A program made the position numbers and the translations under genes. Positions 2,562 to 59,147 of a stretch of DNA of 64,000 nt are shown here, piece after piece. The notes under the pieces are model-generated. The model saw nothing but the letters and a program-made list of their open reading frames with translations. It was not told the DNA's origin and made no database searches. Position 1 is the stretch's first letter. The number at the start of each line of letters is the position of its first letter. The DNA is from an uncultured Chloroflexia bacterium (lineage in GTDB: Bacteria > Chloroflexota > Anaerolineae > Anaerolineales > Anaerolineaceae), in assembly GCA_963793615.1 (NCBI GenBank), contig CAWCAN010000006.1, positions 3,499-67,498 of the forward strand, in the 5' to 3' direction.

Positions 2562-2566
2562 CGACG

Positions 2567-8224: not shown

Positions 8225-8291
8225 ATTGTTCTCCCGCATTTTCTGTTGTGATTGCGGCCGCGGCCGAATCGCCCGGCCGACGGTCCCGTGA

Positions 8292-25756: not shown

Positions 25757-27230
25757 TTATTCCAGAGGGATAATCTCGTATTCAATTTGTGTGTTGGAAA
25801 TTTCGAGGTGATTAAGTTCAAATTCTGCGTTATCCATGGCAATGGAAAATCCATCATTAATCCCTTTGGAAAGTATGCCACCCACCAACAATAAGGGAAA
25901 GTCATTGTATTTCCGTAAGGAAAAAATAGGTTTGCCCTTTTTTTCGGTAATCTTTACCTCGAGTTTTGCCGGTCCGTACTTTGTTTCCGCACTGAGAAAC
26001 GCCCGATCTGGGGATTGAAAGTTCACATCAAATGAAGCAGCCAAATCTGCCGCATACATATCCAGTGTGCCACTGAGTGCATCCGTGGCTTCCTCTTCGG
26101 TTAGGAATTCTGAACGTTTGATATTTGTGTCCACAAAGGTGTAATCCAGTTTGGAAAATGCAGTCTGGATTAGGCGTGAGATGAGAACCGCACCGCCAAT
26201 ACTTAATAAAATGCTGGCAAGCAGCAGCACGCCTATCAAGGTTCCGAAGAATGTTACCAACCAGCGAAGTACCTTATGAGATTGGGTACGTTTTTGCATT
26301 GTTTCAACTGGTTTATCGGGCTGTACCATTTGGGTGGCGGGGATGACGCTTTGCCGGGTTGGAATTTGGGTAAGAACAGCCATGGGAGGCAGTATGCCGC
26401 GGGAAAGGTTTTCCAAAGCAACACCCATTGCAGCCATGGTGGGGAACCGGTCTTCCGGCACTTTGGCAATTGATCGCAGGATGATATTTTCCACCTGTTC
26501 CGGCAAACCAGGAAGTATTTCACTTGGAAGTGGTGGAATCTCTGTGGCGTGTTTCAGTACCACAGCCATGGGTGTATCTGCATCGAATGGCAGTTTGCCT
26601 GTCACCAGTTCATAAAATAAAATTCCCAGGGCATAAATATCTGCCCTTCCGTCCAGGGGTTTGCCAAAACTTTGTTCCGGCGACATATAATGCGGCGTGC
26701 CAATCCCAAAACCGGTACCGGTCAGGTCGGTTGTTGTTTGCTGCCCGAGCATCTTGGCAATTCCAAAATCCGAAAGCATGGGATGCCCGCTATCCGAAAT
26801 GAGAATGTTGGCTGGTTTTACATCACGATGAATAATGTTCTGACTGTGTGCATATTGCAGTGCATGGGTGATGGGCAGCAATAATTTGGCTGCTTCCTGC
26901 CAGGGAAGGGGTGCACCCATGCGATCCTTAAGCGTACCGCCTGAGACATATTCCATGACCAGGTAAGGTGACCCATTTTCTTCCCCATAATCAAGAACTT
27001 TGACAATATTGGGATGGGAGAGATGTGCCAGGGCTTTGGCTTCCCGCTCAAACCGGATGAGAAAAGTTTCATCATTTCCAGATGCAAGCAGCACTTTTAA
27101 TTGCCACAAATCGATCCAACCGGGTGTCCAGGGCTTTGTAAACGGTCGCCATGCCGCCATGCCCCAGTAATTCAACAATTTGATAGCGCCCAATGAACTT
27201 TCCGCTCAGGTCGGAATTGGACTCGGTCAT
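25757..27230 (-). CDS. Hanks-type Ser/Thr protein kinase with a TM helix and extracytoplasmic C-terminal domain (frame break ~27110)
   Basis: The N-terminus [33 protein letters not shown] lies in a shifted frame, with its ATG at 27230. ORF 25757..27193 carries [16 protein letters not shown] and the [10 protein letters not shown] segment, then a TM helix and about 150 aa of unknown ectodomain. Confidence 0.85.
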
Positions 27231-27432: not shown

Positions 27433-28342
27433 TTATCCAGTTTCCGGATGCTGCGGTTTGGGAGAAGATATATTTACCAGATAAATCCCAAGAAGCACCA
27501 CCAACCCGCCAATCCATTGACCGGTCATCAAGCTTTCGCCTAGAATGGGGATGGCAATTAATGCGGTGATGACAGGCTGGGCAATCATGGTGGGCGAAAC
27601 AACCGATGCGGAAAGGTGCCCAAGCGCATAAACAATGGCGTAGTACCCACTGACTTGGGAAATTAACCCGGCAGCCAGGAACATCATATAGGTATTAAAG
27701 GAATAACCCGTCAACTGCTGGTGGGTAACCAGGTTGGCAACTAATAAAACGATGGCAGTGGCAGTTGTTGCCAGCCAGACATAGGTGATGGTGGGTAACA
27801 CCGTTCTCCCTTTTTGCGTGGTGAGATAATAACCAGCATAAAAGAAACTGGAGAGAACTGCCAGGAAATCACCTCCGCTTAAAAGTGGGATGAAGCAGCA
27901 AGTTGTATCCCAAAACAATGGTGGCTCCAGCCAGTGTCAGCATCAAGCCCACCCAAAAACGGGAGCGTGGTTTTTCTTTCCAGAAAAGCCAGGCAATGAA
28001 TGCCACCCATAACGGAGCAATATTGTTCAACAAGGTGGCATTTGCCACCCTGGTGAGCATGATGGCAAAACCCCAGATGGCATGGTCAAATGCAGAAAAT
28101 ACACCTGCCATGAGCGGATAAAGCAGGTGAATGCGTTTAATACCCTTATGCTTAACTAATGAACTTATCCCGAAAGGCATAAAAACGAGGGATGCGATTG
28201 TCATGCGGTAAAACGAGGTTACCAGGGGAGATGCTTCAGCCAACCGGATGAATAATGAGGAAAGGGATAAGGCTAAAACACCACCAGCCAATGCCAGATA
28301 GGGGAGAATCCTGCGCCATTCCATGAGGCGGAATTGTATCAC
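27433..28342 (-). CDS. EamA/DMT-family transporter (frame break ~27890)
   Basis: ORFs 27869..28342 and 27433..27918 abut. About 10 hydrophobic helices form two EamA-like halves. Confidence 0.8.
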
Positions 28343-28378: not shown

Positions 28379-31141
28379 TCAGTCTTCCATTTCCTGGCGC
28401 AACCGGTTACGGGCTTTGGCGAAAAATTTGACGGCAAACCAGATGATTGGCAGCAGAATTGCGGTGCAGGTAAAGTTGACAGGCTTCAGTTGCACAACTT
28501 TATCAACCGTAATCTCATAGCGAACATCACTGCCCGCCAGTTGTTTGTCAAACGGGCGCACCCGCAGAATATAAAGACCATCCTGGGTTGGTTTCCACTC
28601 CAGGCTGGCAGCCTGGTTGAAGCTCTCAGGATTGGCTTCACCCACGACAACGTCACCCAATGGGTCGTAAAGCTGGAATGCAGCCGCTGCATTTCCATCC
28701 AGGGGCTTAGTGGTAATTCGGTAGGTTGAACCTGCACTGGCGGGGAATACCAGCCAATCGTAATCCGAGTAGCCGCACAGGGTGTGCTGCTGGGTCTGGC
28801 TGATTTCTATTGGCGTGGCACCTTGCAGGGTATCGTCACCGGGATCGGGGCTTTCAAATATATCCGGTGTACAGTCGCTTGCGATGCGAACGAATGCCTG
28901 GGCGGTATCACTGTAGGGTTCTTTATTGCCTGCTGTATCCACAGCACGCATGCGGAATTGATATGTGTGTCCCAACTCACCAACGAACCAGAGGGAACTG
29001 GAATCGGCGGGGATCGGTTTGCCCCAACCCACCCAATCTTCTCCATCACGTGAAAATTCCATATCCAGATGAAGAATTTCTTCACTGCCTTGTTCCACAT
29101 TCCAGTTCAGTTGCACGGCAGTCGTTTGGGATATTTCCGGTAAAGTTTCCATGCTGGTTACCGGCAAATCGATGACTTTGTAGATGTTAAAACTGACGGT
29201 TTTTTGACTGATGCCAGCCAGGTTCCTGGCAGAGAGCGTCCAGCGGTATTCGCCAACTGGCAATGTGCCAATTTCCCAAACCAAATCGGTCTGCCATTCC
29301 AGAATCCGGGCATATCCATCGGGTCCCTGCAGCTGGGCTGAATAATCATCCGCACCCGTGGTAATGTTCCAGGTGAGGGTGATGGCATCCTCCAGGGTTG
29401 GGGAATGACCGAGCGCTTCGGAAGGTAATATCGGTTTTGGCTCTTGGGGAGGATCAATACGTGGCATTACTTGCAGGGACTTTAACCAGCCAGCAGAGCC
29501 AGACAGGGTGATAAGGTCTTCTTCAGAATCCAGGAGTACCAGCCGATTGCCACCAAAACCAATGGCTTCATACGCCAGGACCATTAAATTCTGCCCGATG
29601 GTGATTGATTCCACCTGGTTTCCACCAAGCGGATTGAGTCCTTCCATGGCAGCGTAATCCCCAATATCCAGGGTTTGGCAATTGCCATTAAACCCGGCGT
29701 TGGGATATATGGCTACCTGGTTGTCGTTGGGAGTACATACCACCGGGGTAGGGGTAATTGTGGGAGTGGGAGTTGGCGGTGTGCAATCATATTTCATTTC
29801 CAAAAGGCGTGAGCCCTGCAATTTAGCAGCATTCTTGCCGGCAAAATCCACCACCTGTAAACCAATCATGAATGGTCCAAGGGGTACATTTTCCTTACAC
29901 AGGTCAAGCGAAGTTTTGAAGGGAGTAACTGTCTGGGCAGTTCCTGCTGCTCTCCAGTTGCCATCGGTTGAGATATACAACTGCATGGAGGCAATACCGG
30001 TATCGTCCTTCCCAAAGCCTTCCACGGTCATCATTTGGGTGCTGATGATGGTATCGGCTGCCGGAGCGGTAATGCCACCGGTGGGTACTGCTTTATCGCC
30101 ATTATTCTGGGAGAAATATTTATCTCCCGTAACACATTGCGAACCATAATTGGGGAATTTACTGGCTTCCACACAGGTGCGTGGTCTGCCACCGTTAGCG
30201 GTAACCTCATCAAACAGAATGTCAACCGAGGTACCCCAGAATGAATTGGCATTGGTGTGTACCATGAAATGTAAATGCGAACCTGAACTGGGACCGGTGT
30301 TATCAGCATACCCAATCAGTTCACCCTGTGCCACGGAAGCACCTTTAACCCGGAATGCCGCCGGGATGCTGTCCTGTGCCAGGTGATAATACACCTGGTA
30401 GGTGGTTGGTGTGGTGGAGGTATCTTCCAGGATCAGGAAATTGGCACTTTCGTGATAGTTGTTTGGATAACGCCAGACGGCAGTCTTGACCCTGCCACCT
30501 CTGGCAGCCAGCACTGGGAAATTGGTACCGTCTGCGAAGTCAAAGGCATACAGGCAGGTATCGGGGCAGGTCTTGTAAACAAAAACATGACCGATGCTGC
30601 CGGTCAATCGAACAACCCTGCCAGACGGGTAGGGTAGTTTATATCCTTTTAATGGTGTGCCTTTTTGCAAGCGCTGCTCTTTGGAAACATAACGGGCTTT
30701 CATCTCAGGATCGAGGACATCATCCGGTACCCGTTTGAGTGTTTTGGACCAGGATTTATCCGCTTGCAGGATAATTTTCCAGTCATCTGCATTTGTTCCG
30801 TCCCCACTGACACGTTCCCCGATTGCCAAACCCACTTCACCCGGGATTATTTCACCGGTTTCCGGGTCGAGCAAACTCAACCATAAGAGAGCGAGGCTGC
30901 CATCTGCGCTGTATGTAAAACGCTCAATCTTCACTTGATACACCAGGAAGGCAATAATATCATTCCGGTTCTGGATGCTGCTCTGGAATGCGGCAGATAA
31001 AGCGGTATCCCAACCAGGATTAACCGGAACTGGGGTTCCTGATTGCCCGCTTTCCTGGCTGCCATTCAACAGGGCACAGGAGGAAAGTAACAGCGACAGA
31101 ATGAGAAAAAGGCAAAATGAGAAGTATCGGCGACGTGTCAT
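28379..31141 (-). CDS. 920-aa M23-family metallopeptidase lipoprotein with Ig/FN3-like repeats, a PPC-like domain and a C-terminal TM anchor
   Basis: Lipobox LLSSC. M23 signature GELIGYADNTGPSSGSHLHFMVH. Thr/Pro linker PPTPTPTITPTP. Pre-peptidase C-terminal-like segment DYDWLVFPASAGSTYRITT...LYILRV. Terminal helix AILLPIIWFAVKFF. Confidence 0.8.
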   Translation of the reverse strand: MTRRRYFSFCLFLILSLLLSSCALLNGSQESGQSGTPVPVNPGWDTALSAAFQSSIQNRNDIIAFLVYQVKIERFTYSADGSLALLWLSLLDPETGEIIPGEVGLAIGERVSGDGTNADDWKIILQADKSWSKTLKRVPDDVLDPEMKARYVSKEQRLQKGTPLKGYKLPYPSGRVVRLTGSIGHVFVYKTCPDTCLYAFDFADGTNFPVLAARGGRVKTAVWRYPNNYHESANFLILEDTSTTPTTYQVYYHLAQDSIPAAFRVKGASVAQGELIGYADNTGPSSGSHLHFMVHTNANSFWGTSVDILFDEVTANGGRPRTCVEASKFPNYGSQCVTGDKYFSQNNGDKAVPTGGITAPAADTIISTQMMTVEGFGKDDTGIASMQLYISTDGNWRAAGTAQTVTPFKTSLDLCKENVPLGPFMIGLQVVDFAGKNAAKLQGSRLLEMKYDCTPPTPTPTITPTPVVCTPNDNQVAIYPNAGFNGNCQTLDIGDYAAMEGLNPLGGNQVESITIGQNLMVLAYEAIGFGGNRLVLLDSEEDLITLSGSAGWLKSLQVMPRIDPPQEPKPILPSEALGHSPTLEDAITLTWNITTGADDYSAQLQGPDGYARILEWQTDLVWEIGTLPVGEYRWTLSARNLAGISQKTVSFNIYKVIDLPVTSMETLPEISQTTAVQLNWNVEQGSEEILHLDMEFSRDGEDWVGWGKPIPADSSSLWFVGELGHTYQFRMRAVDTAGNKEPYSDTAQAFVRIASDCTPDIFESPDPGDDTLQGATPIEISQTQQHTLCGYSDYDWLVFPASAGSTYRITTKPLDGNAAAAFQLYDPLGDVVVGEANPESFNQAASLEWKPTQDGLYILRVRPFDKQLAGSDVRYEITVDKVVQLKPVNFTCTAILLPIIWFAVKFFAKARNRLRQEMED

Positions 31142-31170
31142 ACCCGCAAGGTTGCAGGTTTTGTGCCAGC

Positions 31171-31449
31171 CTATCCGCCTGCAACCGCCGGGAAAAGCAT
31201 CACTTCATCGCCATCCTGGATCAGCACATCCTCGTCGTTTATTTTTAATGGATTGCCGTTGATAAAGACCCGCAGATGAGGGGCGAGTTTGCCATCCTGT
31301 AAAGCAATCTGGGCAAAACCTGCAGGAAATCGTTCAGCCAGGGCAATAATCAATTGCATCAAGGTGAGCGGAGCAGGAAACGTGAGCGTTTCACTTTTGC
31401 AATCCGTGTATACACTCAGGATGTTGAAATACCGGACTGTAATTTTCAT
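31171..31449 (-). CDS. MoaD/ThiS-family small beta-grasp protein ending in Gly-Gly
   Basis: MKITVRYFNIL...VMLFPAVAGG*. Its ATG at 31449 shares one base with the TGA of the upstream AOR gene (TGATG). Confidence 0.7.
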   Translation of the reverse strand: MKITVRYFNILSVYTDCKSETLTFPAPLTLMQLIIALAERFPAGFAQIALQDGKLAPHLRVFINGNPLKINDEDVLIQDGDEVMLFPAVAGG

Positions 31450-33440
31450 CAATATTCGCTTGCAACGTTTTCTGTATAGGGGGTTGCCCAACCCATTTTT
31501 GTCCTGATTTCTGCGGCTTTACCGCTTTCAATCTGTTCTTTCATGCGGAAATATTCCTCACGCAGACCCAGGCGGGTAAGGGTTTCAAGTGTGGGAAGTC
31601 CGGTGTTTTCATCCCACTCCCGCAGGCGATAGTAATCCGGCAGCATGATATCCAACCGGCATACACTGCCATTTGCATTACCCGAAGTGGACGGTTTGAG
31701 GGTGAAACGCCAGGGCAGCACATCATCCGCTGCGTCAATACCGTGCAGGGCATTGTATGCTCTCTGCAGGTTGTAAATCCGTTCACCGATGGCTTTTAAG
31801 CGAGGTACATCCATTTCCATGCCTGTGATATAAGAAATGGCATCAGCATTTTCCTGCCAGTACACTTCCGCCATCACAAATGTACCGCCAGATTTGCAGG
31901 TACCAACCGAATCAATGATTGCACCAAATTCTTCCCCATCCTTTACCAGGAAAGCTTTATGTTTTGTGGCAAGCGGTTCGACCAGTTCAGGCAGATATTC
32001 TTCACCGTAACGCCGAACTGCCTCGGATGGATAACCCGTTTCATCCAGGATGGGGAATGCCTTCAAATGGTCGGCTCCCCGGGTGGATGTTACATGCGCC
32101 AATCCCATGGATTGCTGCGCTCTGCCATCCTGGGCGGAGATATCCTGACCCTTGACATGCATGGCATACTTCACCGCTTCTCCACCTAAAATCCGGGCAG
32201 CATGCGAGGTGCCTTCTGCCAGCAGGTCAGCCAGTTTTCCCTGGCGGTTGGCAATCCGTTTCAGCAATTCCACCATGGTGGTGTAACTTCCCCAATTCAA
32301 ATTCAAACCTTCCCATTCTGATTTAGGCAGGATACCTTTTTCGGCCAGTTCCATGGCGAATGCAATAACCCCGCCGGCAGAGATGGTGTCCAATCCCAGG
32401 TCGTCACATAATTCATTCCCTTTTAAAACAGCGGGTAGATTCCTGTTACACAACCTGGCACCCAGTGAGTTCAGGGTTTCATATTCCACGCTGGAATCCA
32501 ACACACCCGCATATTCTCCCGAGGTTACTTCGTAAACCTTGTCACAACCGACCGGGCAATTGAAACAGGAAACATCCCGGTCAAAATGCTTCTCGTGAAG
32601 CATTTCGCCTGAGATTTCATCAAAACCTTCAAAACCGCCAAGCTGGAAGTTGCGGGTCGGAAACCGTCCCATGGGCTGCATCAATGCCACCAGACCCGGA
32701 GTACCAAAGCGGTGAACACCTGGGAAGAATTCATTGGTTCGAATTTCATCATGCATGCGCATGGAGAGTTCCATAAGTTTTTCAGGGTGAGCAACCGGAA
32801 TTGCGCCTGTACCTCGTACCGCGATGGCTTTAAGATTTTTCGAGCCCATGACAGCCCCGATGCCTGTGCGGGCTGCACTGCGGCGATAAGTTACCTGGAT
32901 ACTGGCAAAACGTACCAGGTTTTCACCCGCAGGACCAATTGCAGCAACTTTGAGGTCAGGGTCTTTTGCCAGAACTTTAAGCATCTGCTCTGTTTCGAAA
33001 ACACCTTTACCCCATAATGCGCTTGCCTGCCGCAATTCCACTTCAGCATCTTTTATCCATAAATAGACAGGCGCAGGCGATTTGCCTTCAAAAATGATCA
33101 AATCATAGCCAGCAAATTTCAATTCAGGACCAAAATGACCACCCGAGTTTGCATCCCCATACATCCCGGTCAGCGGGCTTTTGGCAATGAACTCCAGGCG
33201 ACCGGAATTCGGCATGGGGCTGGTGCATAAGGTTCCAGTGGAAACAATTAACTTGTTGTCCGGTGAGAGCGGGTCCACTTCGGGGGGGACCTCATCCCAC
33301 AAAATGCGGGTGCCAATCCCGTTACCACCCAAATAATTCTCCACCCAGTCCACGGGTAAAGGTAATTTTGAAATTGATCCGGTAGTCAGATTAACCCGCA
33401 AGTATTGACCCGCATATCCTTTATAGGGAAATTCGCTCAT
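31449..33440 (-). CDS. aldehyde:ferredoxin oxidoreductase-family (tungsto/molybdo-pterin) enzyme, copy 1
   Basis: 663 aa, intact. AFOR N-terminal domain (YAGQYLRVNLTTG...LGGNGIGTRILWDE) and 4Fe-4S ligands CFNCPVGC plus a downstream Cys are present, with an AOR C-terminal domain to the end. Confidence 0.9.
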   Translation of the reverse strand: MSEFPYKGYAGQYLRVNLTTGSISKLPLPVDWVENYLGGNGIGTRILWDEVPPEVDPLSPDNKLIVSTGTLCTSPMPNSGRLEFIAKSPLTGMYGDANSGGHFGPELKFAGYDLIIFEGKSPAPVYLWIKDAEVELRQASALWGKGVFETEQMLKVLAKDPDLKVAAIGPAGENLVRFASIQVTYRRSAARTGIGAVMGSKNLKAIAVRGTGAIPVAHPEKLMELSMRMHDEIRTNEFFPGVHRFGTPGLVALMQPMGRFPTRNFQLGGFEGFDEISGEMLHEKHFDRDVSCFNCPVGCDKVYEVTSGEYAGVLDSSVEYETLNSLGARLCNRNLPAVLKGNELCDDLGLDTISAGGVIAFAMELAEKGILPKSEWEGLNLNWGSYTTMVELLKRIANRQGKLADLLAEGTSHAARILGGEAVKYAMHVKGQDISAQDGRAQQSMGLAHVTSTRGADHLKAFPILDETGYPSEAVRRYGEEYLPELVEPLATKHKAFLVKDGEEFGAIIDSVGTCKSGGTFVMAEVYWQENADAISYITGMEMDVPRLKAIGERIYNLQRAYNALHGIDAADDVLPWRFTLKPSTSGNANGSVCRLDIMLPDYYRLREWDENTGLPTLETLTRLGLREEYFRMKEQIESGKAAEIRTKMGWATPYTENVASEY

Positions 33441-33961
33441 GATGTCCTCCGGGGTTTGATAACGCCGTCTGTTTCTTGCTGTTCAAGCAATGCATTGCGG
33501 GCATTTTTTAAGCGTTCATACACAACCTGGCCGCCTTGTAAAACGTCCACTTTCTGAATTGCTCCAGGAGCACACACTTTCACGCACCACGGGTCGCCAT
33601 CACACTGGTCACATTTAAGCGATACCAATCGGCCGTTTTTTCCTCTACCCGGCAATCTATGAACCTGAATGGCACCAATTTCACAAGCCCGGCTGCATTT
33701 CCCGCAACCCGTGCATAATGCTTCGGTTATCACAACTGCGCCAGCAGCATTTACGGCAATTGCATTTTCTGGGCAGACCGGGATGCAGGGTTTTTCATCA
33801 CAGGGTATGCAGGTAATTGGAATGATGACTTTTCGGTTTTCATCGTGCATCACTTGTATTCGCGATAAGTTGGTACTGACAGTGCCTTCATGCTTTAAGG
33901 AACAGAAAACAGTACATGCCATGCAACCGGTACATTTTTGCGGATCAATATCCAGATACAT
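33437..33961 (-). CDS. 4Fe-4S polyferredoxin (AOR electron-transfer subunit-like)
   Basis: Likely start MYLDIDPQKCTGCMAC at 33961. Four Cys clusters are present (CTGCMACTVFC, CIPCDEKPCIPVCP, CTGCGKCSRAC, CDQC...CVKVC). ATGA overlap with AOR copy 1. Confidence 0.8.
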   Translation of the reverse strand: MYLDIDPQKCTGCMACTVFCSLKHEGTVSTNLSRIQVMHDENRKVIIPITCIPCDEKPCIPVCPENAIAVNAAGAVVITEALCTGCGKCSRACEIGAIQVHRLPGRGKNGRLVSLKCDQCDGDPWCVKVCAPGAIQKVDVLQGGQVVYERLKNARNALLEQQETDGVIKPRRTS

Positions 33962-35333
33962 AACTTCCTTTCTGACGGGCAATGAACCGCCCGCTGCCGG
34001 CTTCGCCGATAAATTGACCATTGTGATAAACCACTTTCCCGCGTGCAATAGTTGTGACGGGGTATCCAGTCAGCTCCATACCTTCATAGGGTGTGTAATC
34101 AACATTTTCATGCAGTAAGGTATGCGTGAGCGTGACTTTGCGGGTTGGATCAAAAATAACTATGTCTGCATCAGAACCTTGTGCAAGACAACCTTTTTGC
34201 GGATACATGCCAAAAATGCGGGCTGGTGCAGTGCTGCAAATTTCCACCCAGCGCTCAAGGCTGATGTGACCCGATAGAACACCAAAAGTATGCATTAATG
34301 ACAACCGGCTTTCAATCCCGGGCAATCCTCCTGGAATTTGGGTAAAGGTCTTTCGCCCCAATTCTTTTTGTCCAGAAAAATTAAAGGGACAATGGTCTGT
34401 TCCAATAGTGCTGATGGTCTTGTCAGCCAGACCACTCCATAAGGCTGCCTGGTCATTACTCGTTCGTAATGGGGGTGAGCACACAAATTTTGCGCCTTCA
34501 AAATCCGGACGGAAGAGTTCTTGTTCGTCCAGTAACAGGTACTGGGGGCAGGTTTCAGCCAGGGCATTTACTCCCCGCAATTGTGCCTGGTGGACTGCTT
34601 GAACTGCACCGGCAGTAGACAGGTGAACGATGTACAACGCAGCATTGGTGACTTCAGATAGAGTAAGCGCCCTGGTTACCGCTTCCACTTCAGTGATGGC
34701 AGGTCGGGATGCGGCATGGTATTGGGGAGAGGTTTTCCCAGCTGCAGTCAATTCTTGTTTCAGGTAAGAAATGGCAGCATCATTTTCAGCGTGCACAAGT
34801 ACCAGACCGCCTGCCCGGTTTACTGTTTTCAGTGCTTGCAGAAATTCATTATCGGTAAGGCGAAAACCGTCATAAGTAAGATATGTTTTAAATGAAGTAA
34901 CACCATCTAGAATTAATGGGGGTATTTGGGAAAGCGTTTCCGGTTCGCTGTTAGTAATGGTCATATGCAGACCATAATCGGTAACTGTTTTTCCAGTTGC
35001 CTCTGCTTTGCGTTTTTCCAATGCCTGCAGCAAGGTCTCGCCGGATTCAGGTTCAATAAAGTCAATTACAGTGGTTGTTCCGCCGCAAATGGCTGCCCGT
35101 GTGCCTGTAAACCAATCATCGCTGGATGTTGTCTTCCCGACCGGCATTTGCAAATGGACATGGGGATCAATCCCGCCAGGGATTACCAGGCTGCCAGCCG
35201 CGTCAATTTCCTGTATGCCATGCAAACCGCGTTCGATGGCGGCAATTTTTTCATTGATAATGCCAATGTCCGCCTGGATGACTCCCCAGCCAGACACGAG
35301 AGTACCGTTGCGGATAACGGTGTCAAACTGCAT
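33945..35333 (-). CDS. D-hydantoinase/dihydropyrimidinase-family cyclic amidohydrolase
   Basis: 462 aa, intact. GGIDPHVHL metal site, SFKTYLTY (carboxylated-Lys position), VHAEN, HLS and GTDHCPF are present. Confidence 0.85.
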   Translation of the reverse strand: MQFDTVIRNGTLVSGWGVIQADIGIINEKIAAIERGLHGIQEIDAAGSLVIPGGIDPHVHLQMPVGKTTSSDDWFTGTRAAICGGTTTVIDFIEPESGETLLQALEKRKAEATGKTVTDYGLHMTITNSEPETLSQIPPLILDGVTSFKTYLTYDGFRLTDNEFLQALKTVNRAGGLVLVHAENDAAISYLKQELTAAGKTSPQYHAASRPAITEVEAVTRALTLSEVTNAALYIVHLSTAGAVQAVHQAQLRGVNALAETCPQYLLLDEQELFRPDFEGAKFVCSPPLRTSNDQAALWSGLADKTISTIGTDHCPFNFSGQKELGRKTFTQIPGGLPGIESRLSLMHTFGVLSGHISLERWVEICSTAPARIFGMYPQKGCLAQGSDADIVIFDPTRKVTLTHTLLHENVDYTPYEGMELTGYPVTTIARGKVVYHNGQFIGEAGSGRFIARQKGSYVSGY

Positions 35334-37201
35334 AATCCACCAGATCCAACCGCTTTAGTGTATGTGCTGTCGGCTTACCCTTTTCATCCCAACCACGCAA
35401 TTGATAATAGCGCTGCAGCATGGCATCGAAGTTTTTAATGCTGGCAACCGTCACCGGTTTTTCTGAACGGGATGGCATCACCCCCGTCTGCTGAAGGGGT
35501 GTAGGTATAGATTTCTAGGGGTTCCTTGGTAAATCTGCCTGGAAGTACGTCCTGGCGGCTGTCGAATCCATGCCGTACGTTGAATTGTCTCTCCAGGTTC
35601 ACAATGCGTTCACCGGCAGTTAACAAGTCTTTGCCTGATACAGGGATGCCCAGGGAAGTTAATCCATCCGCCAGGTCATCCACCATGACTACATACGTCT
35701 CTGCCGTGCTGAACTTGCACAAACCCAGTGAATCAATCACTGCGCAAAAATTCTCGCCGTATTGCAAAACATCCGCCTTATAGGTCTCATCGGCACTGTC
35801 CATCAACTTCGGCAGATATTCTTCCGGGAAAAGTTTTCGTGCTGCTTCCCAGTTTCCTGCCAGGTCGATTGTGGGTAACCCATACAGATGGTCAGCTCCA
35901 CGATTGCTGGTGGCATGTCCCAAACCGAAAGTTTTTGCCACCCGGGGTTCCTGGCGGGGTAATTCAACCCCTTTTACCTGCATGGCATATTGAGCGGAAT
36001 CTTTTCCAATTTTTACAGCAGCCCGGGAAACACCTTCTGCAAGAATATCACCCAAGCCCTGGCGGTTGGCAATGGCATCAATCAGTCCCAGGATGGTTTC
36101 GGCATCACCCCATTCAAGGGAAAAATGGGGATCATCCAAAATTCCACGTTGGTGGCATTCCATTGCAAAAGCGATGCACACACCCGTGGAGATGGTGTCC
36201 AATCCATGTTCATTGCACAGGTAATTGGCGCGGATGACCACTTCCGGGTCCCGGTTATATACCAGTGGTCCAAATGCATCTGTGGTTTCATATTCGGGAC
36301 CTTCAATTACATTTTCAACGTTGTTATTCAGGATGGTTGAACGTCGGGAGCAGCGCATGGGACAGGCAGCACAACCTTTGCGCTTGGTCCAATACTGTTC
36401 GAAGGATTGCTGGCTGAGACTGGAGATAAATGGTATCTGGCTGGTCTGATGGTTTTTTGCCGGCAAGTCGCCAGACATGTTTTTAATGCTCATTAAAAAC
36501 AAGGTGGAACCGTTCATCAGACCCTGCGAGCCAGGGTGGTTGATCAGGCGTTGATTGGTCTGCCTGACAAGTGCTGTAAACTCTGGTTCAAATGTTGGTC
36601 GGCGGCTGGCAATGACGTGAATGGCTTTGAGATTCTTGCTGCCCATCACGGCACCTGGTCCGGTTCGGGCGGCTGCCCTGCCGCCATCGTTGATAATCGC
36701 GGCGATTTTGACCAGGTTTTCACCGGCTACTCCAATGGCAGCAACCCGTCCACCTGCCTGGGCAATTAAGGTCTCCTCCACCTGGGAGGTGGTGAGACCC
36801 CACAGGTTATCAGCAGGGAAAATGGTGATAGTGTCATCGCGGACTTCAAGATAACTCGGGGAGGGGGCTTTTCCGGTAATGATGAGCGCATCAAAACCCG
36901 CCCGGCTCAATTCCGGTCCAAAATGACCGCCAGCATTGGCATAGCCGTACGCACCAGTGGCAGGGGATTTAAAAGTTACATGGTAACGGGAGGAAGTCGG
37001 CCAGGGAGTTCCATTGAGCGGACCGGACGTGAAAATGATACAATTTTCTGGATCAAAAGGCTGCACTTCCGGGGAAACCATCTGGTACAGGTAGGCTGCA
37101 CCCAGACCGCGCCCACCCAGGAATTTACGCAATAAAATTGGGTCAGTCTCTTTTTGTGTTATCAGACCGGTCGTCAGGTTAATGGTTGCAGTAATTCCCA
37201 T
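35323..37201 (-). CDS. aldehyde:ferredoxin oxidoreductase-family enzyme, copy 2 (frame break ~35450 near the 3' end)
   Basis: ORF 35435..37201 carries the AFOR N and C domains and CAACPMRC. A shifted frame continues SEKPVTVASIKNFDAMLQRYYQLRGWDEKGKPTAHTLKRLDLVDYAV*, the typical AOR C-terminus. Its stop at 35323 overlaps the hydantoinase start by 11 nt. Confidence 0.85.
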
Positions 37202-37222
37202 GGAGAGCCTCTCAATTTGATT

Positions 37223-37759
37223 TTAAAAAGCAGGTGGGGTCATTATGCAGATGACATACAACTCATCATTTCCAATGGATGCAAATGAACGCAATTGTGC
37301 ACCTTCATATTGGACGCTATCGCCAGGATTCAACTGGTAAGAACGTTCACCCAAAACAATTTCCATTGAACCCTGAATCACAATCATCACTTCTTCAGTT
37401 GGCTGGAAAAGCGGCTGGGCGACCTGGCGGGTACCGGATTTGAGATGAATGGCAAAACAACCCAACTGGCGGGCAAGGTCACTGGTAAGTAATTCATATT
37501 CCACCCGGCTGCTGGGAAAGCTGAGTTTTTTACGCTGGTTCCGGCGCACAACCACTTCGGTTTGCTGTTCGCCGTCCAATAATGCAAACATGGGGACTTT
37601 TAATGCCGTGGCAATACGCTGCAGGGAACTGATGGAGGGCGAAGTGGCATCATTCTCCACCTGGCTGAGAAAACTGGCAGTCAGTTCGGTCAAATCACCC
37701 AACTCACGCAGGCTTAACCCCAATTCTTTACGTCGCTCGTGCAATTTTTTCCCGATCAT
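37223..37759 (-). CDS. XRE-family HTH plus cupin-domain transcriptional regulator
   Basis: HTH_3 (LRELGDLTELTASFLSQVENDATSPSISSLQRIATAL) and a C-terminal cupin_2 domain. Ends 21 nt upstream of AOR copy 2 on the same strand. Confidence 0.85.
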   Translation of the reverse strand: MIGKKLHERRKELGLSLRELGDLTELTASFLSQVENDATSPSISSLQRIATALKVPMFALLDGEQQTEVVVRRNQRKKLSFPSSRVEYELLTSDLARQLGCFAIHLKSGTRQVAQPLFQPTEEVMIVIQGSMEIVLGERSYQLNPGDSVQYEGAQLRSFASIGNDELYVICIMTPPAF

Positions 37760-37790
37760 TCCTATTAGTATAGAAAATGGGGCAAGGTTT

Positions 37791-37825
37791 TGTCAAGTGA
37801 CATTTGATATATGTTCAGTGACAGT
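37791..37825. promoter_or_regulatory. candidate operator: TGTCA-N2-TGACA palindrome plus imperfect palindrome ttcagtgacagtgaa (AGTGACA repeated 21 bp apart)
   Basis: Read directly in the 260-bp divergent spacer between the XRE-cupin gene and the YgeW-like gene. Confidence 0.25.
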
Positions 37826-38019
37826 GAATATTTTTCAGATACTTTGAGATTAAAGAAACTATAATGTGATTAATGTTATCTTGAAGCCAGTATGGCTTTA
37901 TGATATGATATTTCTGTAAATCTACACTGTACAATTTCAAGTGGAGATAAACACCAGCCTGTGATTTCACCAAACAAGGTATACCATCTCATTTTTTACA
38001 TCTGTTACGGAGGAATTGT

Positions 38020-39081
38020 ATGAAGACGACAAGTTTCAAAGGTCGTGATTTCCTGGCAGAAACTGATTTTACCCGCGAGGAAATCGAAACTGTATTAACT
38101 GTTGCCGAGGAATTGAAAAAAGACCGGGCAATGGGTCACTATCATGACCAGCTCCTGCGTTCCAAAACCCTGTTCATGATTTTTTACAACCAGTCATTAC
38201 GCACCCGCAATTCTTTCGAAGCCGGAATGACGCAGCTTGGCGGTCATGCCCACTATCTTGACCCTGACAAAATTTACAAACCCGCCCTGGAAGGCCGCGA
38301 AATTGCCTACACCACCGAGCGTGTTTCGGATGTTGCCCGGGTGCTGGACCGCATGGGTGATGCCATCGCCATCCGCTGTTATGGCGATCCGGTCGACTGG
38401 GAATATGGTGGAGCCCACGCCATGCTGCGCGAATTTGCCAAATGGGCAGATATTCCGGTCCTGAACATGGAAGATGACATTTACCATCCTTTCCAGGGTC
38501 TGGCAGATGTGTTGACCGTCAAAGAGAAATTTGGCGGTTTCAAAGGCGTAAAATTCACCATGTCCTGGGCATATTCCCCCAGTGTGCATAAACCACGGGC
38601 TGTTCCGCAATCTGCCATCCTGTATGCCACCATGCTGGGCATGGATGTCACCCTGGCACACCCCAAGGGAATGGAACTGGCTCCGGATATCATGGCTCAA
38701 TGCAAAACCTATGCGGAAGACGCTGGCGGTTCCTTCAATTACACAGACAATTTTGAAGACGGTGTTGAAGGTGCGCATGTGGTCTACCCGAAAGCCTGGT
38801 GCGCCACTCCCATTTTCTTGCAACCCATCGGTGAGAACGATCCCAAGAAAACACAGGCGATTTTCGATGCCCATAAGGATTGGAAATGCACTGCAGATAC
38901 CATGAAGCTGGCTGATAAAAACGCCATCTACCTGCACTGTCTTCCCGCTGACCGGGGTTATGAAGTTTCGAATGAGGTGATGGATAAAACCAGTGGACCC
39001 GGCTGGAAATCCGCCATCTTTGATCAGGCTGAAAACAGGCTGCATGTTCAAAAAGCAGTCATGAGCCTGGTGATGCAATAA
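38020..39081 (+). CDS. YgeW-type (knotted) carbamoyltransferase
   Basis: SLRTRNSFE carbamoyl-phosphate motif and HCLPADRG. From my memory of E. coli YgeW, it also shows YgeW-like blocks WAYSPSVHKPRAVPQS, GMDVTLAHPKG, VVYPKAW and HKDWKCT. Confidence 0.75.
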   Translation: MKTTSFKGRDFLAETDFTREEIETVLTVAEELKKDRAMGHYHDQLLRSKTLFMIFYNQSLRTRNSFEAGMTQLGGHAHYLDPDKIYKPALEGREIAYTTERVSDVARVLDRMGDAIAIRCYGDPVDWEYGGAHAMLREFAKWADIPVLNMEDDIYHPFQGLADVLTVKEKFGGFKGVKFTMSWAYSPSVHKPRAVPQSAILYATMLGMDVTLAHPKGMELAPDIMAQCKTYAEDAGGSFNYTDNFEDGVEGAHVVYPKAWCATPIFLQPIGENDPKKTQAIFDAHKDWKCTADTMKLADKNAIYLHCLPADRGYEVSNEVMDKTSGPGWKSAIFDQAENRLHVQKAVMSLVMQ

Positions 39082-39091
39082 GGTTGGATGT

Positions 39092-39121
39092 ACGAGCGGG
39101 CTGAAAAGCCCGCTCGTTTTG
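39092..39121 (+). terminator. rho-independent terminator after the carbamoyltransferase gene
   Basis: Stem acgagcgggc / gcccgctcgt with a 6-nt loop, then tttt. Confidence 0.75.
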
Positions 39122-39230
39122 CAAATCTCAGGCAGCACGCTTAATTGGGAATTTATACCCCCACTATTTGAATGCATGATGCCTGGAATATATTTTATGT
39201 TTATGATTGTTTATTGAAGTGGAGGATGCC

Positions 39231-40250
39231 ATGGCACAACGAATGGCGCTTTATTTACAGGATAAACATGATATCCGTTATGAATTGGAAATAGCCCAGT
39301 ATGCTGAAGACCGTGGTTTCAGCGAAATCTGGCAGGCGGATACCCGGCTGGCGCGTGACTGTATAGTGATGATGAGTGCCTTTCTCACGCATACCAAAAA
39401 ACTGCGTATTGGATCCGGCGTGCTGCCTATTTGGACCCGCAACGCTGCCGTGATTGCTGCCACCTGGAGCAGCATGTGGGAACTGGGTGGCAAAATTGAT
39501 GGTCGTTCGCGGGTAATGCTCGGATTAGGTGCCTGGTGGGAACCGATTGCCGGACGGGTTGGGGTGAATCGCATCAAACCGTTGAAAGCCATGCGGGAAA
39601 ATGTAGAAGCCATCAGGCAGCTATTTACGATGAAAGAAGTTACTTACCAGGGTGAATTTGTGCAATTGGACCGCATCAACCTGGACGTGGCATTTGGTGA
39701 TAAAAGTCCGCGGGATATACCCATTTATATTGGGGCAACCGGCGACAAAATGCTGGAACTGGCTGGAGAAATTTGCGATGGCGTGGTATTGAATTACGTC
39801 GTTTCGGTCGATTACATCAAGGAAGCCATCCGCAAGGTGGAAGTTGGTGCCCAAAAAGTTGGCAAGACCATAAAGGATATTGACCTGCCAGAACTACTGG
39901 TATGTTCGTTATCCGATAAAGACCCGAAGGCTGCCATGGCAGAAGGAAAGAAACTGGTGGCGTATTACCTGGCAACTGAACCCCACATCATGAAAGCCAG
40001 CCATGTCAGCGAGGAATTGCTGGAAAAAGTGCAGGCAATCATGTCCTGGCCGGCTACGGAAGACGATTATATTCGTGCCAGCCAGGTGATACCGGATGAT
40101 GTGGTTCGGCAGTTAATGGCGGTTGGCACAACGGAGGATTGCCGTGCCAAGGTGAAGGAATATATTGATGCCGGGGTTACCTGCCCGATCCTCTTCCCGA
40201 TGATGCCGGACATCAAGCCGGTGGTGGATGCCTTTGCGGATTGGGGATAA
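39231..40250 (+). CDS. LLM-class (luciferase-like) flavin/F420-dependent oxidoreductase
   Basis: ORF 39207..40250. The ATG at 39231 is preceded by GGAGG. A TIM-barrel LLM pattern ([47 protein letters not shown]) is present. Confidence 0.8.
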
Positions 40251-40273
40251 GGTTTATGTTTTGGTTAGTAGAG

Positions 40274-40308
40274 CAAAGCAGTCTCATTAATGAGACTGCT
40301 TTGTTTTT
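40274..40308 (+). terminator. rho-independent terminator after the LLM gene
   Basis: 13-bp perfect stem caaagcagtctca / tgagactgctttg with loop ttaa, then ttttt. Confidence 0.75.
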
Positions 40309-40596
40309 GTCATCCTGAATGTAACGAAGGATCTCGCATTGAAATCAAATTCCCGTGCGAGATGTTTCGCTTCACTCAACATGACAGGCGGTGATGTACC
40401 CGAGAGTACGAGGTTGCCTTGAAAAATTCCCGGGCGAGATGTTTCGCTTCGCTCAACATGACAGGGGTGATTGTCACCCTGAGTGAAACGAAGGGTCTCG
40501 CCTTGAAAAAATTCCCGGGCAAGATGTTTCGCTTCGCTCAACATGACAGGTCAGATGTCATCCTGAGGGAGGCCGCCAATTCCCTGAAAATTCCCA
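40309..40596. repeat. about 3.5 tandem copies of a ~77-85-bp internally palindromic element
   Basis: Units end at 40388, 40465 and 40550 with (c)gagatgtttcgcttc[a/g]ctcaacatgacagg. Each unit starts with the inverse-complement-like arm gtcatcctga.tg.aacgaagg.tctcg. Confidence 0.8.
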
Positions 40597-40602: not shown

Positions 40603-41238
40603 TTAAAACACCACTTCCTCTTTCCCTGAAAGCTTGTCGTTGATTATTTCCACCACCTGGTCCAAATGTTTTGGCAGGTGAACAAAGTCCAGATCATCCG
40701 TGCGCAGGGTGAGCACCGGGCATAGGTCAAAAGTTTTCAACCATTCATCATAATAAGAATCAAGCAGGGTAAGGTATTCCGCAGTTATGCCGGTTTCAAT
40801 ATTGCGTGCCCGGCTGTGGATGCGATTCATCAAAACAGAGACAGGGGCTTTGAGATAGATGAGCAGGGAAGGGGCTGGCAGACTTTGCACAATCAGTTCG
40901 AACAACTTGCGATAAGACGAATAATCCAGTTCATTCAAATTTCCCATACTGTGGAGTGCACGGGCAAAAATGAAGGCATCTTCATAAATACTGCGGTCAA
41001 TGATGGCATTGCGCGGGTCACTCCACATATCCAGGTGCTGCTGGGCGCGGTGACCGAGGAAATAGATTTGCAGATGGAAAGACCAGCTTTTCATATCTTT
41101 GTAAAAATTGGGCAGGTAGGGGTTATCGGCAACGGATTCGTAGGCGGTCAGCCAGCCCAACCGTTCACCAATCTTCTCGGTCAAGGATGTTTTACCGGAA
41201 CCAATATTGCCTGCCACCAATATGAGTCTTTTTGCCAT
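40603..41238 (-). CDS. deoxynucleoside kinase
   Basis: P-loop GNIGSGKTSL, ERSIYED-like DRSIYEDAFIF and the arginine-rich lid RIHSRAR. Confidence 0.85.
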   Translation of the reverse strand: MAKRLILVAGNIGSGKTSLTEKIGERLGWLTAYESVADNPYLPNFYKDMKSWSFHLQIYFLGHRAQQHLDMWSDPRNAIIDRSIYEDAFIFARALHSMGNLNELDYSSYRKLFELIVQSLPAPSLLIYLKAPVSVLMNRIHSRARNIETGITAEYLTLLDSYYDEWLKTFDLCPVLTLRTDDLDFVHLPKHLDQVVEIINDKLSGKEEVVF

Positions 41239-41342: not shown

Positions 41343-41988
41343 ATGACATCACAGATTACCCAGTTTTTACAACAATTAACTCAAGACGAAATCGGGTTAT
41401 ATCGTTCTCTTAACACCCCTGAACGGGTGCAGGCATTTCTGGATCAGACCACGTATTCCTCTGATCATTTTTACCGCAACCCGATCAGGGTGCTGCGCGA
41501 GCGGATTGCCAACTGCCTGGACGGAGCCCTCTTTGCAGCTGCCTGCCTGCGCCAGAGCGGTTACCCACCCAGGGTGATTGACCTGGTGCCGGAGCCTGGA
41601 ACAGATGACGACCACTTTATTGCAGTTTATAAACTTAATGGATTATGGGGAGCGGTAGCCAAATCCAACTTTGCAGGATTGCGCTACCGTGAGCCAATTT
41701 ATCACACGGCGCGTGACCTGGTGCTATCGTATTTTGAACAATACTTTAACACGGCAGGTATGAAGACCCTGCGCGCCTATACCAGACCATTCAACCTGGC
41801 GAAGTTGGACTCGGTTGGCTGGATGTATCAGCGATGAAGGAATGGATGCGGTGGAGCGGGCATCCTATGGCTGGAAGCAGGTGACACTCTTTAGCCCGGA
41901 AGTGATTGCTGGGTTTATGACGGTGGATGAACGAACGCTGAAGGCGGGATTGGCTGGTGCAAACCAGGCGGGGTTGTATAAGGGGTAA
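41343..41988 (+). CDS. transglutaminase-like cysteine-protease-fold protein (frame break ~41830)
   Basis: ORF 41343..41837 has a candidate Cys/His/Asp arrangement (ANCLDGALF ... DDDHFIAVY). A shifted frame continues DEGMDAVERASYGWKQV...GLYKG* to 41988. Confidence 0.55.
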
Positions 41989-58865: not shown

Positions 58866-59130
58866 TCTTCCTCCAGTACGTATTCAAAAAGAAAGCCATT
58901 AAATAAAAATAACCCTTGCCCTGGGGCAAGAGTTACTCTCATGCGGTTCCACCCAGATTAACCTGGTTTCAGGTCATCTCGTTGTACCGATAACGGGGTT
59001 ACCGTCTTCCTTACTTGGTTTGACCCGTTCAGGTTGCCGCTCTCAGGGGGTTTTCACCGGTTTTTCCGAAGGAGAATTGCAGCCATGTTCTCCTCTCTCT
59101 GGCGGTCAGAACCGGTTACTCGTTCTGATC
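58866..59130 (-). promoter_or_regulatory. T-box leader (Thr-type) with intrinsic terminator upstream of thrS
   Basis: The minus strand shows an AGAGAG box, AGTA/GAA S-turn elements, the F-box CCCGTTA and the T-box AATCTGGGTGGAACCGCA (plus 58941..58960). The terminator aactcttgccc/gggcaagggtt plus atttttattt lies at plus 58901..58934. ACC triplets occur in the 3' half of stem I. Confidence 0.7.
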
Positions 59131-59147
59131 ATAGCGTTTCGTATGTG

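Follow-up and report, generated by a model that had tools for sequence, protein, structure and literature searches.

The DNA analysed here, referred to as the window, is a 64-kb stretch of contig CAWCAN010000006.1 from an uncultured Chloroflexia bacterium of the Anaerolineaceae. It carries a minus-strand operon in which two pterin enzymes of the AOR/WOR family, designated AOR1 and AOR2, flank a hydantoinase, and this operon and its divergently oriented neighbours are the subject of this report. Genes were identified by open reading frame listing and by Pfam and NCBIfam family scans of the window. The order and family calls of the six minus-strand genes named in a preliminary description of this DNA were confirmed at their coordinates. 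That description had treated these six genes as one functional unit, which stands, but it drew the span too small: a carbamoyltransferase and a luciferase-like (LLM) oxidoreductase on the plus strand also belong to the unit, since their orthologues (74-83% and 75-85% identity) occur in loci centred on an SsnA-like amidohydrolase, described below. The features are as follows.

37767-37796, minus strand: sigma-70-like promoter (TTGACA-18 nt-TATACT) before the regulator gene
37223-37759, minus strand: PuuR-like regulator with XRE-type helix-turn-helix and cupin domains (Pfam HTH_3, Cupin_2), first gene of the operon
35323-37201, minus strand: AOR2, single-subunit AOR/WOR-family pterin enzyme, 625 amino acids (aa) after frame correction (PF02730 243.9 bits, PF01314 338.9 bits)
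33945-35333, minus strand: HyuA-type D-hydantoinase/dihydropyrimidinase, 462 aa (TIGR02033 558.8 bits, cutoff 393.25)
33437-33961, minus strand: polyferredoxin, WorS/AorA/YgfS-like, 174 aa, with four [4Fe-4S] motifs and 16 Cys (Fer4 family matches)
31449-33440, minus strand: AOR1, AOR/WOR-family pterin subunit, 663 aa (PF02730 272.5 bits, PF01314 404.5 bits)
31171-31449, minus strand: MoaD/ThiS-like protein ending in Gly-Gly, 92 aa (Pfam ThiS 38.6 bits, above the cutoff)
38020-39081, plus strand: carbamoyltransferase, YgeW analogue, 353 aa (OTCace_N and OTCace), divergent from the operon
39207-40250, plus strand: LLM oxidoreductase, probably F420-dependent (PF00296 197 bits), divergent from the operon

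The operon and its divergent partners

Re-measurement reproduced most of the junctions given in the preliminary description, namely a 21-nt gap, a 17-nt overlap on the upstream side of the polyferredoxin gene, an ATGA overlap on its downstream side with AOR1, and a TGATG junction at which the AOR1 and MoaD-like genes share one base. The reported 11-nt overlap between AOR2 and the hydantoinase gene requires correction of a frameshift in AOR2 that had been crossed unnoticed: the conserved frame does run to 35323, but the deposited reading frame ends at 35435.

The promoter was the top match in the region 30900-40500 and agrees with the consensus at 11 of 12 positions. Since the number of promoter-like matches in this region did not exceed the shuffled expectation, its assignment rests on conservation: both hexamers and a block adjoining the promoter upstream (ACTGAACATATATCAAAT.TCAC) are identical in four relatives, including L001, L008 and L009 (loci of the survey described below are designated by L numbers), and the remaining spacer diverges. 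The conserved block could be an operator. An inverted repeat at 37877-37905 was also considered for this role and dropped because it is not kept in the relatives. A terminator scan after the MoaD-like gene gave nothing convincing, with matches at shuffle level, and the Rfam scan of the window found only one T-box and two tRNAs, none of them within the operon.

The best NCBIfam model for the regulator is PuuR, although its 65.6 bits fall far short of the 211-bit cutoff. A homologue is the first gene of the cluster in L004, L005, L010, L055, L090, L096, L098, L101 and L170. The polyferredoxin shares 28% identity with Escherichia coli YgfS and matches the polyferredoxin parts of AegA and YgfT in NCBIfam; in the surveyed loci it invariably lies directly upstream of AOR1-clade genes. 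The MoaD-like protein, whose scores with the NCBIfam models SAMP1 and MoaD_arch are slightly under their cutoffs, is likely a pterin-cofactor maturation factor. Its gene follows AOR1 in most AOR1-type loci and is also present in L004, which encodes an XdhD-like enzyme and no AORs.

The hydantoinase call of the preliminary description holds, as TIGR02033 is exceeded well above its curated cutoff. A dihydroorotase or allantoinase identity was ruled out, both models falling below their curated cutoffs. The protein is 44% identical to E. coli HyuA, which itself scores 675 on TIGR02033, and its translation contains the motifs DPHVH, SFK, VHAEN, VHLS and GTDHCP of a binuclear metal site (HxH, carbamylated Lys, two His and Asp).

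The carbamoyltransferase is 35% identical to E. coli YgeW. Its top NCBIfam match, the biosynthetic N-acetylornithine carbamoyltransferase, lies below cutoff, and this identity was dropped as the leading interpretation because orthologues with 74-83% identity are fixed beside the SsnA-like amidohydrolase, the hydantoinase or AOR2 in many loci (L011, L018, L095, L105-L109, L128, L131, L144, L146, L164 and L167). The LLM protein is matched solely by F420-LLM/Mer-type NCBIfam models, all under cutoff. It is a candidate ring-reducing, dearomatising enzyme and the most conserved protein of the cluster (75-85% identity); orthologues of the window protein adjoin the SsnA-like hydrolase in 22 of 46 metagenome loci. 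In the window lineage the LLM gene is consistently accompanied by one for a deoxynucleoside kinase (40603-41238, minus strand; the L001 orthologue matches PF01712), whose proximity may reflect a loose link to nucleoside metabolism or plain synteny.

Conserved linkage and apparent exchange with xanthine dehydrogenase-type enzymes

Conservation of the linkage was surveyed in a scan with an alignment of AOR2-clade proteins, using one genome per species, and the proteins of the window and its relatives were mapped to 80 loci by tblastn; positions in the high-GC loci L034 and L048 are tblastn coordinates. The test set comprised 46 AOR2-clade loci less than 70% identical to the window, and 31 loci with generic AORs (37-41% identity) from the same scan served as a built-in control. 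A hydantoinase gene lies within 10 kb in 18/46 AOR2-clade loci (39%) and in 0/31 generic loci (Fisher p = 2e-5). For AMHdn, a 441-aa SsnA-like amidohydrolase, the corresponding counts are 24/46 (52%) and 0/31 (Fisher p = 2e-7). An AOR1-clade gene is present in 17 of the 46 test loci. AOR2 stands directly before the hydantoinase gene in 10 loci below 70% identity, with gaps of -6 to +125 nt, and the linkage occurs in at least five phyla (Chloroflexota, Bacillota, Thermotogota, Spirochaetota and Atribacterota). The preliminary description had staked its proposal on this adjacency recurring in related genomes; it is conserved well outside the window's own lineage, in support of one functional unit.

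Many unrelated contigs have the same gene order as the window. The closest relatives (L001-L003, L008 and L009, all metagenome-assembled genomes (MAGs) of Anaerolineaceae; 72-76% identity) are collinear with the window up to and including the flanking M23 peptidase, EamA and kinase genes, and as this synteny extends to unrelated flanks they were set aside as independent evidence of linkage. The M23 peptidase was rejected as a member of the unit because it is syntenic within the same lineage only. Coupling of AOR2 to the hydantoinase is frequent, not obligatory, since L170, L011 and L012 have no hydantoinase gene between AOR2 and the polyferredoxin gene. L170, from Longilinea arvoryzae (GCA_001050235.2, DF967972.1 1939680-1961590), has the order regulator-AOR2-polyferredoxin-AOR1-ThiS-AMHdn-LLM.

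Several of these genes have counterparts in the reductive uric-acid (2,8-dioxopurine) pathway published in 2025, in which XdhD-YgfM converts urate to 2,8-dioxopurine, the ring is then reduced by YgfK or UacX, opening of the two rings by SsnA and HyuA is followed by loss of the ureido groups through YgeW/UacY and YgeY, and YgeX leads to pyruvate (PMC12507026; bioRxiv 10.1101/2025.04.24.650524). The E. coli cluster reads ygeW-ygeX-ygeY-hyuA-yqeA ... ygfK-ssnA-ygfM-xdhD, and variants exist in Clostridioides difficile and Clostridium sporogenes (PMC12507026; bioRxiv 10.1101/2025.04.24.650524). Chloroflexota neighbourhoods that lack YgfK and UacX and have a PF00296 F420-type enzyme instead were also noted, and the LLM-type protein was proposed to be the Chloroflexota yanthine reductase (Li et al. 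2025, PMC12507026). The suggestion in the preliminary description that the operon belongs to an undescribed pathway is thus not borne out: the backbone matches the reductive uric-acid pathway, of which an F420 variant in Chloroflexota was already on record.

A metagenome scan centred on AMHdn recovered a core of hydantoinase, AMHdn and LLM genes, accompanied by the carbamoyltransferase, a YgeY-like peptidase, a deaminase-type amidohydrolase and the regulator. Outside Chloroflexota, the gene following AMHdn encodes a UacX-type protein with a DHO_dh domain and two [4Fe-4S] clusters, and L045 encodes a YgfK-like DHO_dh/Fer4_20/Pyr_redox_2 protein; UacX-like and YgfK-like proteins stand beside AMHdn in L034, L039, L044 and L045. 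YgeY-like genes were found in 13/46 AMHdn loci, L034 and L048 combining YgeY with a weak YgeX match. L163 adds YqeB, YqeC, a YgfM-like protein and a 980-aa fused molybdenum protein whose top model is the XdhD family TIGR03313. In Bacillota clusters, a UbiD-family (prenyl-FMN) decarboxylase gene follows that of the deaminase-type amidohydrolase (L034:934-2280 and L048:5233-6579, the Pfam run being made on the latter only).

The place of the AORs in these clusters is best seen in two distant relatives of the hydantoinase locus. L005 has the order regulator-AOR2-hydantoinase-polyferredoxin-AOR1-MoaD-AMHdn-LLM, and L004 the order regulator-hydantoinase-MoaD-AMHdn-LLM, followed by a YgfM-like FAD subunit and an XdhD-like protein (fused Fe-S/Mo), with no AOR. 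The divergent genes are common to both loci (for a deaminase-type amidohydrolase, an ECF transporter and a GlcD-CCG oxidase), so that they differ essentially by YgfM-like plus XdhD-like in one and AOR2 plus polyferredoxin-AOR1 in the other. Concordantly, among 164 loci surveyed, none of the 8 with a fused XdhD-type enzyme has AOR1 or AOR2: neither the window nor any other AOR1/AOR2 locus has XdhD-YgfM, which occurs, in fused form with a YgfM-like partner, in 8 AOR-free relatives. Genes for a three-subunit xanthine dehydrogenase (XDH) co-occur with AOR2 in 12/18 loci and with AOR1 in 1/18. AOR1 is accompanied by AOR2 in 24/28 loci, and three of the four loci without AOR2 (L094, L099, L154) are contigs that end beside the polyferredoxin and AOR1 genes. 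The idea of the preliminary description that the AORs replace XDH-family enzymes fits this exchange of modules and the exclusivity of AOR1 and AOR2 with XdhD-type proteins.

A third AOR-family clade, 33-35% identical to AOR1, lies directly after the fused XdhD-like gene (L090:16218-18029, L097:7300-9033, L098:16147-17961), which means that the molybdenum versions of the cluster often also have an AOR-family partner. The divergent arm shared by L004 (1-7223), L005, L010, L055 and L170 consists of the deaminase-type amidohydrolase, ECF T and A components and an 870-aa FAD_binding_4-FeS-CCG fusion, and is absent from the window lineage; a riboflavin-type ECF S component (PF07155) occurs in L004 only. 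The type of this S component hints at an imported flavin or pteridine-like heterocycle.

Clades, architecture and active sites of the two AORs

AOR1 and AOR2 are about 37% identical to each other, and both exceed the gathering scores of PF02730 and PF01314. Among structures in the PDB, both score highest with the aldehyde oxidoreductases 1aor, 9mqx, 8c0z and 9g7j, followed by FOR, WOR83, BamB and WOR5. For AOR1 the closest solved relatives are 9mqx (440 bits), PfAOR 1aor (423 bits) and AorB 8c0z (402 bits). Neighbour joining placed PfAOR and 9mqx together with the generic AORs of Chloroflexota, and AOR2 (a monophyletic clade of 55 sequences) and AOR1 (28 sequences) form separate clades of their own. 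The phylogenetic check proposed in the preliminary description thus places neither enzyme in a PfAOR-type clade; each belongs to a clade that comes with this neighbourhood.

The residues at the active site were compared in PfAOR numbering. The four Cys ligands of the [4Fe-4S] cluster (288, 291, 295, 494) are invariant in all 55 AOR2-clade and 28 AOR1-clade sequences, as are the pterin/Mg residues Arg76, Asn93, Arg182, Asp343 and Asp489 in both clades, except that Asn93 is found in 51/55 AOR2 sequences. Both clades also retain Thr243, Glu311, Tyr312, Glu313 and His448. Thr243, Glu313, Tyr427 and His448 have been described as conserved second-shell residues (PMC13328260; PMC12096430). Tyr427, which is proposed to position the aldehyde and is described as universal in known AORs, is replaced by Gln in 55/55 AOR2-clade and 28/28 AOR1-clade sequences, and Tyr452, assigned to a proton relay, by Leu in AOR2 and Phe in AOR1 (PMC12096430; PMC13328260). 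Furthermore, Cys447 is changed to Asp and Trp316 to Asp or Asn in both clades. Generic Chloroflexota AORs, PfAOR and 9mqx keep Tyr427, the generic enzymes being canonical at these sites. In the loss of second-shell Tyr427 and in their position apart from characterised AORs, AOR1 and AOR2 depart from aldehyde-oxidising AORs sensu stricto. The retained and replaced residues together imply that the oxo-transfer machinery is intact and that the substrate pocket is remodelled towards polar, amide-type contacts.

A classification of 2026 distinguishes Class I WORs from Class II WORs, the latter composed of WorL and WorS (PMC13328260). By sequence, AOR2 has the Class I layout and the polyferredoxin with AOR1 the Class II layout, its three genes for polyferredoxin, AOR1 and MoaD-like protein being joined by the ATGA and TGATG overlaps. 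This arrangement mirrors the aor operon of Aromatoleum aromaticum, with aorA (four [4Fe-4S] clusters), aorB (W-pterin) and aorD/E (MoaD-like) (PMC6365974). As no gene for an AorC-like FAD protein is present, the module is of the two-subunit Class II type, not AorABC, and unlike AorAB(C) it lacks the FAD/NAD subunit. AorAB(C) and characterised AORs differ further in keeping Tyr427, where the window enzymes have Gln427 and Leu or Phe452 and fall outside the PfAOR/9mqx clade, and the genomic context of AorAB(C) is aromatic or alcohol metabolism, in contrast to the ureide/purine hydrolases here.

BamB, which has an altered first coordination sphere, provides a precedent for an AOR-family enzyme acting on an aromatic ring rather than an aldehyde. 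However, its similarity scores are far lower (274 and 178 bits), and its BamC-I partners are all absent. A BamB-like, Birch-type ring reduction is unlikely because of this weak similarity and the retained Glu313 and His448, which point to oxo-transfer/hydride chemistry.

In archaea, polyferredoxin-AOR pairs forming a sister group of the AOR1 clade were found in L063 and L086 (Promethearchaeota/Hermodarchaeota MAGs) and also in L053 and L067. In L063 and L086 the pair adjoins a carbamoyltransferase, 53% identical to that of the window, and two amidohydrolases. A related module may, on this gene content, be present in Asgard archaea.

Proposed relation to reductive purine degradation and competing explanations

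In our view it is an even question whether the region is the central part of a reductive purine/uric-acid (2,8-dioxopurine-type) cluster of anaerobes, in a version proper to Anaerolineaceae in which the AORs would be integral redox enzymes occupying the slots of XDH-type enzymes. The AORs are placed in these slots by the fit of the co-occurrence data to a two-slot model and by an analogy between lactim and acid reduction. Slot one would be filled by XdhD-YgfM or AOR2 and slot two by a three-subunit XDH or polyferredoxin-AOR1 (or the third AOR); in characterised systems the slots correspond to reduction of urate to 2,8-dioxopurine and to hydroxylation of xanthine/hypoxanthine.

In the scheme we infer, in which each substrate, the metal, the F420 dependence and the ligand of the regulator are predicted, a PuuR-like repressor or sensor and the conserved promoter would drive one translationally coupled operon, with carbamoyltransferase and LLM genes divergent. 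AOR2, as a ferredoxin-linked single subunit, and polyferredoxin-AOR1 would perform pterin-dependent hydroxylation or dehydroxylation of the purine ring, a step carried out elsewhere by XdhD-YgfM and three-subunit xanthine dehydrogenases, for example from urate to 2,8-dioxopurine. Chemically, conversion of a lactim C(OH)=N to CH=N is formally the nitrogen analogue of the AOR reduction of an acid to an aldehyde with low-potential ferredoxin. The LLM protein would then reduce the ring with F420H2, as proposed by Li et al. 2025, and the SsnA-like amidohydrolase, found in relatives and not in the window, would open the first ring. The hydantoinase, firmly assigned to its family, would convert a hydantoin or dihydropyrimidine ring to the N-carbamoyl acid, the carbamoyltransferase would release carbamoyl phosphate by phosphorolysis of the ureido group, and the MoaD-like protein would serve the supply of pterin cofactor.

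The resemblance to the reductive uric-acid cluster lies, within the window, in the HyuA-family hydantoinase (44%, TIGR02033) and a carbamoyltransferase in the YgeW position, and, in relatives, in the SsnA-like hydrolase combined with a ring reductase (LLM, UacX-like or YgfK-like), YgeY-like, YqeB/YqeC and XdhD/YgfM-like proteins. The window operon differs in embedding two AOR/WOR enzymes, a polyferredoxin and a MoaD-like protein; moreover, AMHdn and the carbamoyltransferase are distant from SsnA (25%) and YgeW (35%) and below the curated cutoffs. With the XDH-family hydroxylases (XdhABC, XdhD-YgfM and the selenium-dependent DOPDH) the AORs share the slot in the collinear clusters L004 and L005, a pyranopterin metal site with Fe-S relays, and a chemistry that is formally analogous, C-H hydroxylation or C-OH dehydroxylation beside a heteroatom corresponding to aldehyde/acid interconversion. 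However, fold and cofactor are unrelated (Mo-MCD/MPT sulfido versus the W/Mo-bis-pyranopterin of the AOR family), and the AORs have no FAD subunit, so that their electrons would go to ferredoxin or polyferredoxin.

Several observations weigh against this assignment. SsnA is the best match of AMHdn, but the scores of 228-259 bits stay well under the cutoffs (444-455), and identity to the E. coli protein is only 25%. The 64-kb window contains no SsnA-like/AMHdn, YgeY, YgeX or carbamate kinase (YqeA) gene and neither a purine nor a tungstate transporter gene. The carbamoyltransferase scores under every curated NCBIfam cutoff (AOTCase 277 versus 288, YgeW 178 versus 453). The riboflavin-type ECF S component of L004 and the GlcD-CCG oxidase of the relatives leave other heterocycles, such as pteridines or flavins, as possible substrates. 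Frequent co-occurrence with three-subunit XDH implies that AOR2 is not simply a substitute for XDH, and conservation of the catalytic pair Glu313/His448 is compatible with ordinary aldehyde/acid chemistry. To our knowledge, no member of the AOR1 or AOR2 clade has a known enzyme activity, and we know of no AOR-family enzyme demonstrated on a purine. The tree comprised 129 AOR sequences, carries no support values and leaves out FOR, WOR4/5, GAPOR and BamB; flanks extended no further than 10 kb, and the loci come mostly from MAGs or metagenome contigs. XDH, XdhD-YgfM and YgfK are likewise absent from the 64-kb window, the remainder of which consists of housekeeping genes. Either the window lineage holds the missing pathway genes elsewhere or it runs a shorter route.

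A more specific version of the purine assignment is that both AORs act directly on purines, AOR2 in the XdhD slot and polyferredoxin-AOR1 in the xanthine dehydrogenase slot, with the Gln427 pocket as an adaptation to lactams or ureides. They would then be the first N-heterocycle enzymes of the AOR/WOR family, functioning as ferredoxin-linked tungsten (or molybdenum) purine hydroxylases/dehydroxylases. We put this forward tentatively, as a possibility the sequences suggest and one that may well prove wrong. Neither AOR nor tungsten is mentioned in the two 2025 uric-acid papers (PMC12507026; bioRxiv 10.1101/2025.04.24.650524), and a literature search turned up no relevant work that ties AOR to hydantoinase, dihydropyrimidinase, uric acid or 2,8-dioxopurine. 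AOR/WOR involvement, exclusivity with XdhD-type enzymes and the Tyr427Gln signature are thus unreported in the literature searched.

A physiological role has been defined for only about 5 of the 92 clades of WORs/AORs (PMC13328260). The present data place two further clades, and perhaps a third, in a specific metabolic context that can be tested. They also extend the uric-acid pathway of anaerobes, which was worked out as recently as 2025 and is relevant to gout and to the gut microbiome, to an environmental and widespread version in which key redox enzymes appear to be exchanged for an unrelated pterin enzyme family. Should the AORs act on purines, the chemistry of the family would widen from aldehydes, sulfonates and benzoyl-CoA to N-heterocycles, tungsten availability would be linked to nucleobase turnover in anoxic sediments, digesters and the subsurface, and anaerobes of at least five phyla would have a purine route independent of the xanthine-oxidase family and of selenium. 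Experiments are feasible because L. arvoryzae, a cultured Anaerolineae species, has an AOR-type cluster.

The cluster might also serve a purine or ureide pathway in which the AORs carry out canonical chemistry on an aldehyde or carboxylate formed within or next to the pathway, or supply the reduced ferredoxin that the reductive steps use up, and leave the heterocycle untouched. We regard this main alternative as rather unlikely, although conservation of Glu311, Tyr312, Glu313, His448, Thr243, the cluster cysteines and the pterin motifs, bona fide aldehyde oxidoreductases as top solved relatives, and the 12 loci with AOR2 alongside three-subunit XDH are all in keeping with it. The exchange of XdhD for AORs is itself compatible with an aldehyde substrate, as XDH-family proteins can be aldehyde oxidoreductases and pterin-aldehyde-oxidoreductase models match them too. 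However, the characterised uric-acid pathway has no aldehyde intermediate (PMC12507026), the invariant loss of Tyr427 and Tyr452 in both clades disfavours an ordinary aldehyde pocket (PMC12096430), and the enzyme swapped out in L004, L090 and L163 is a fused XdhD with a YgfM-like partner, the type shown to reduce urate.

That the substrate is no purine, at least in the window lineage, and instead a pyrimidine, free hydantoin or other cyclic ureide, we consider unlikely. In that case uracil or thymine would be reduced by the LLM protein, the hydantoinase would serve as a dihydropyrimidinase and the carbamoyltransferase would cleave N-carbamoyl-beta-alanine, with the AORs providing an upstream hydroxylation or handling a downstream semialdehyde. 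TIGR02033 indeed includes both HyuA and dihydropyrimidinases, a gene for a deoxynucleoside kinase is conserved nearby, and the SsnA-like gene that a bicyclic substrate requires is missing from the lineage made up of the window, L001-L003 and L008, which retains only regulator, AORs, hydantoinase, carbamoyltransferase and LLM; this explanation is kept because that lineage may have its missing genes elsewhere or run a shorter route. On the other hand, all more distant relatives pair the LLM and carbamoyltransferase orthologues with the purine-type set of AMHdn, XdhD-like, YgeY, YqeB and YqeC, neither an aminotransferase nor a beta-ureidopropionase gene is present, and, with a contig of only about 80 kb, genes missing from the window may simply be encoded in another part of the genome.

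The frameshift raises the question of whether AOR2 is a true pseudogene in this strain and the operon is decaying or dependent on AOR1 only. The deposited frame, which corresponds to the 588-aa protein P0121 of the public record, stops at 35435, 101 nt short of the hydantoinase ATG, so that the protein would lose 37 conserved residues at its C-terminus and the gene its translational coupling to that of the hydantoinase. The conserved AOR C-terminus (..MLQRYYQLRGWDEKG..) runs on in another frame to 35323, and only this frame gives the 11-nt overlap with the hydantoinase gene. Alignment with L001 and L003, in which AOR2 is intact at 625 aa, mapped an extra C to the CCC run at 35469-35471. The window AOR2 is 74% identical to the intact L001 orthologue, its out-of-frame tail is still conserved (56% identity to L001), and AOR2 is intact in all five close relatives. 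As frame breaks also divide three of the five other genes matched between window and L001 (those for EamA, a Ser/Thr kinase and a 214-aa protein), and the window holds more such fragments, a pattern typical of an indel-prone assembly, an assembly indel is the most likely cause and a pseudogene very unlikely.

Frame-broken or fragmentary genes lie at 14303-15642, 25757-27203, 27433-28342 and 41343-41982, and the gene for a type II/IV secretion ATPase is seemingly split into three reading frames; these breaks point to an indel-prone assembly, which bears on how the AOR2 frameshift is read. Approximately the first 9000 nt of the window have 56-66% G+C, compared with 44-51% for most of the rest and 35% in the last 2 kb. 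Positions 1-9000 contain mostly short or truncated genes, such as a ketopantoate hydroxymethyltransferase covering 165/259 profile positions, and may be foreign DNA or the product of a chimeric assembly of the MAG contig.

A coincidental adjacency, in which the AORs are general aldehyde-detoxifying enzymes (as most family members are annotated) unrelated to a hydantoinase that lies within 10 kb in just 39% of AOR2-clade loci, is effectively refuted by the neighbourhood survey, with 0/31 controls against 18/46 and 24/46, five phyla, tight or overlapping AOR2-hydantoinase junctions in 10 independent loci and clade-specific active-site changes.

Apart from the operon, a T-box leader was identified at 58919-59141 on the minus strand (98.7 bits), directly downstream of a tRNA gene (59148-59221). 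It lies upstream of a gene for a 233-aa protein (region 58164-59221, minus strand) with tRNA_SAD, a domain of the Thr/Ala-tRNA synthetase editing type, as its sole domain, which may be a free-standing editing protein under T-box control.

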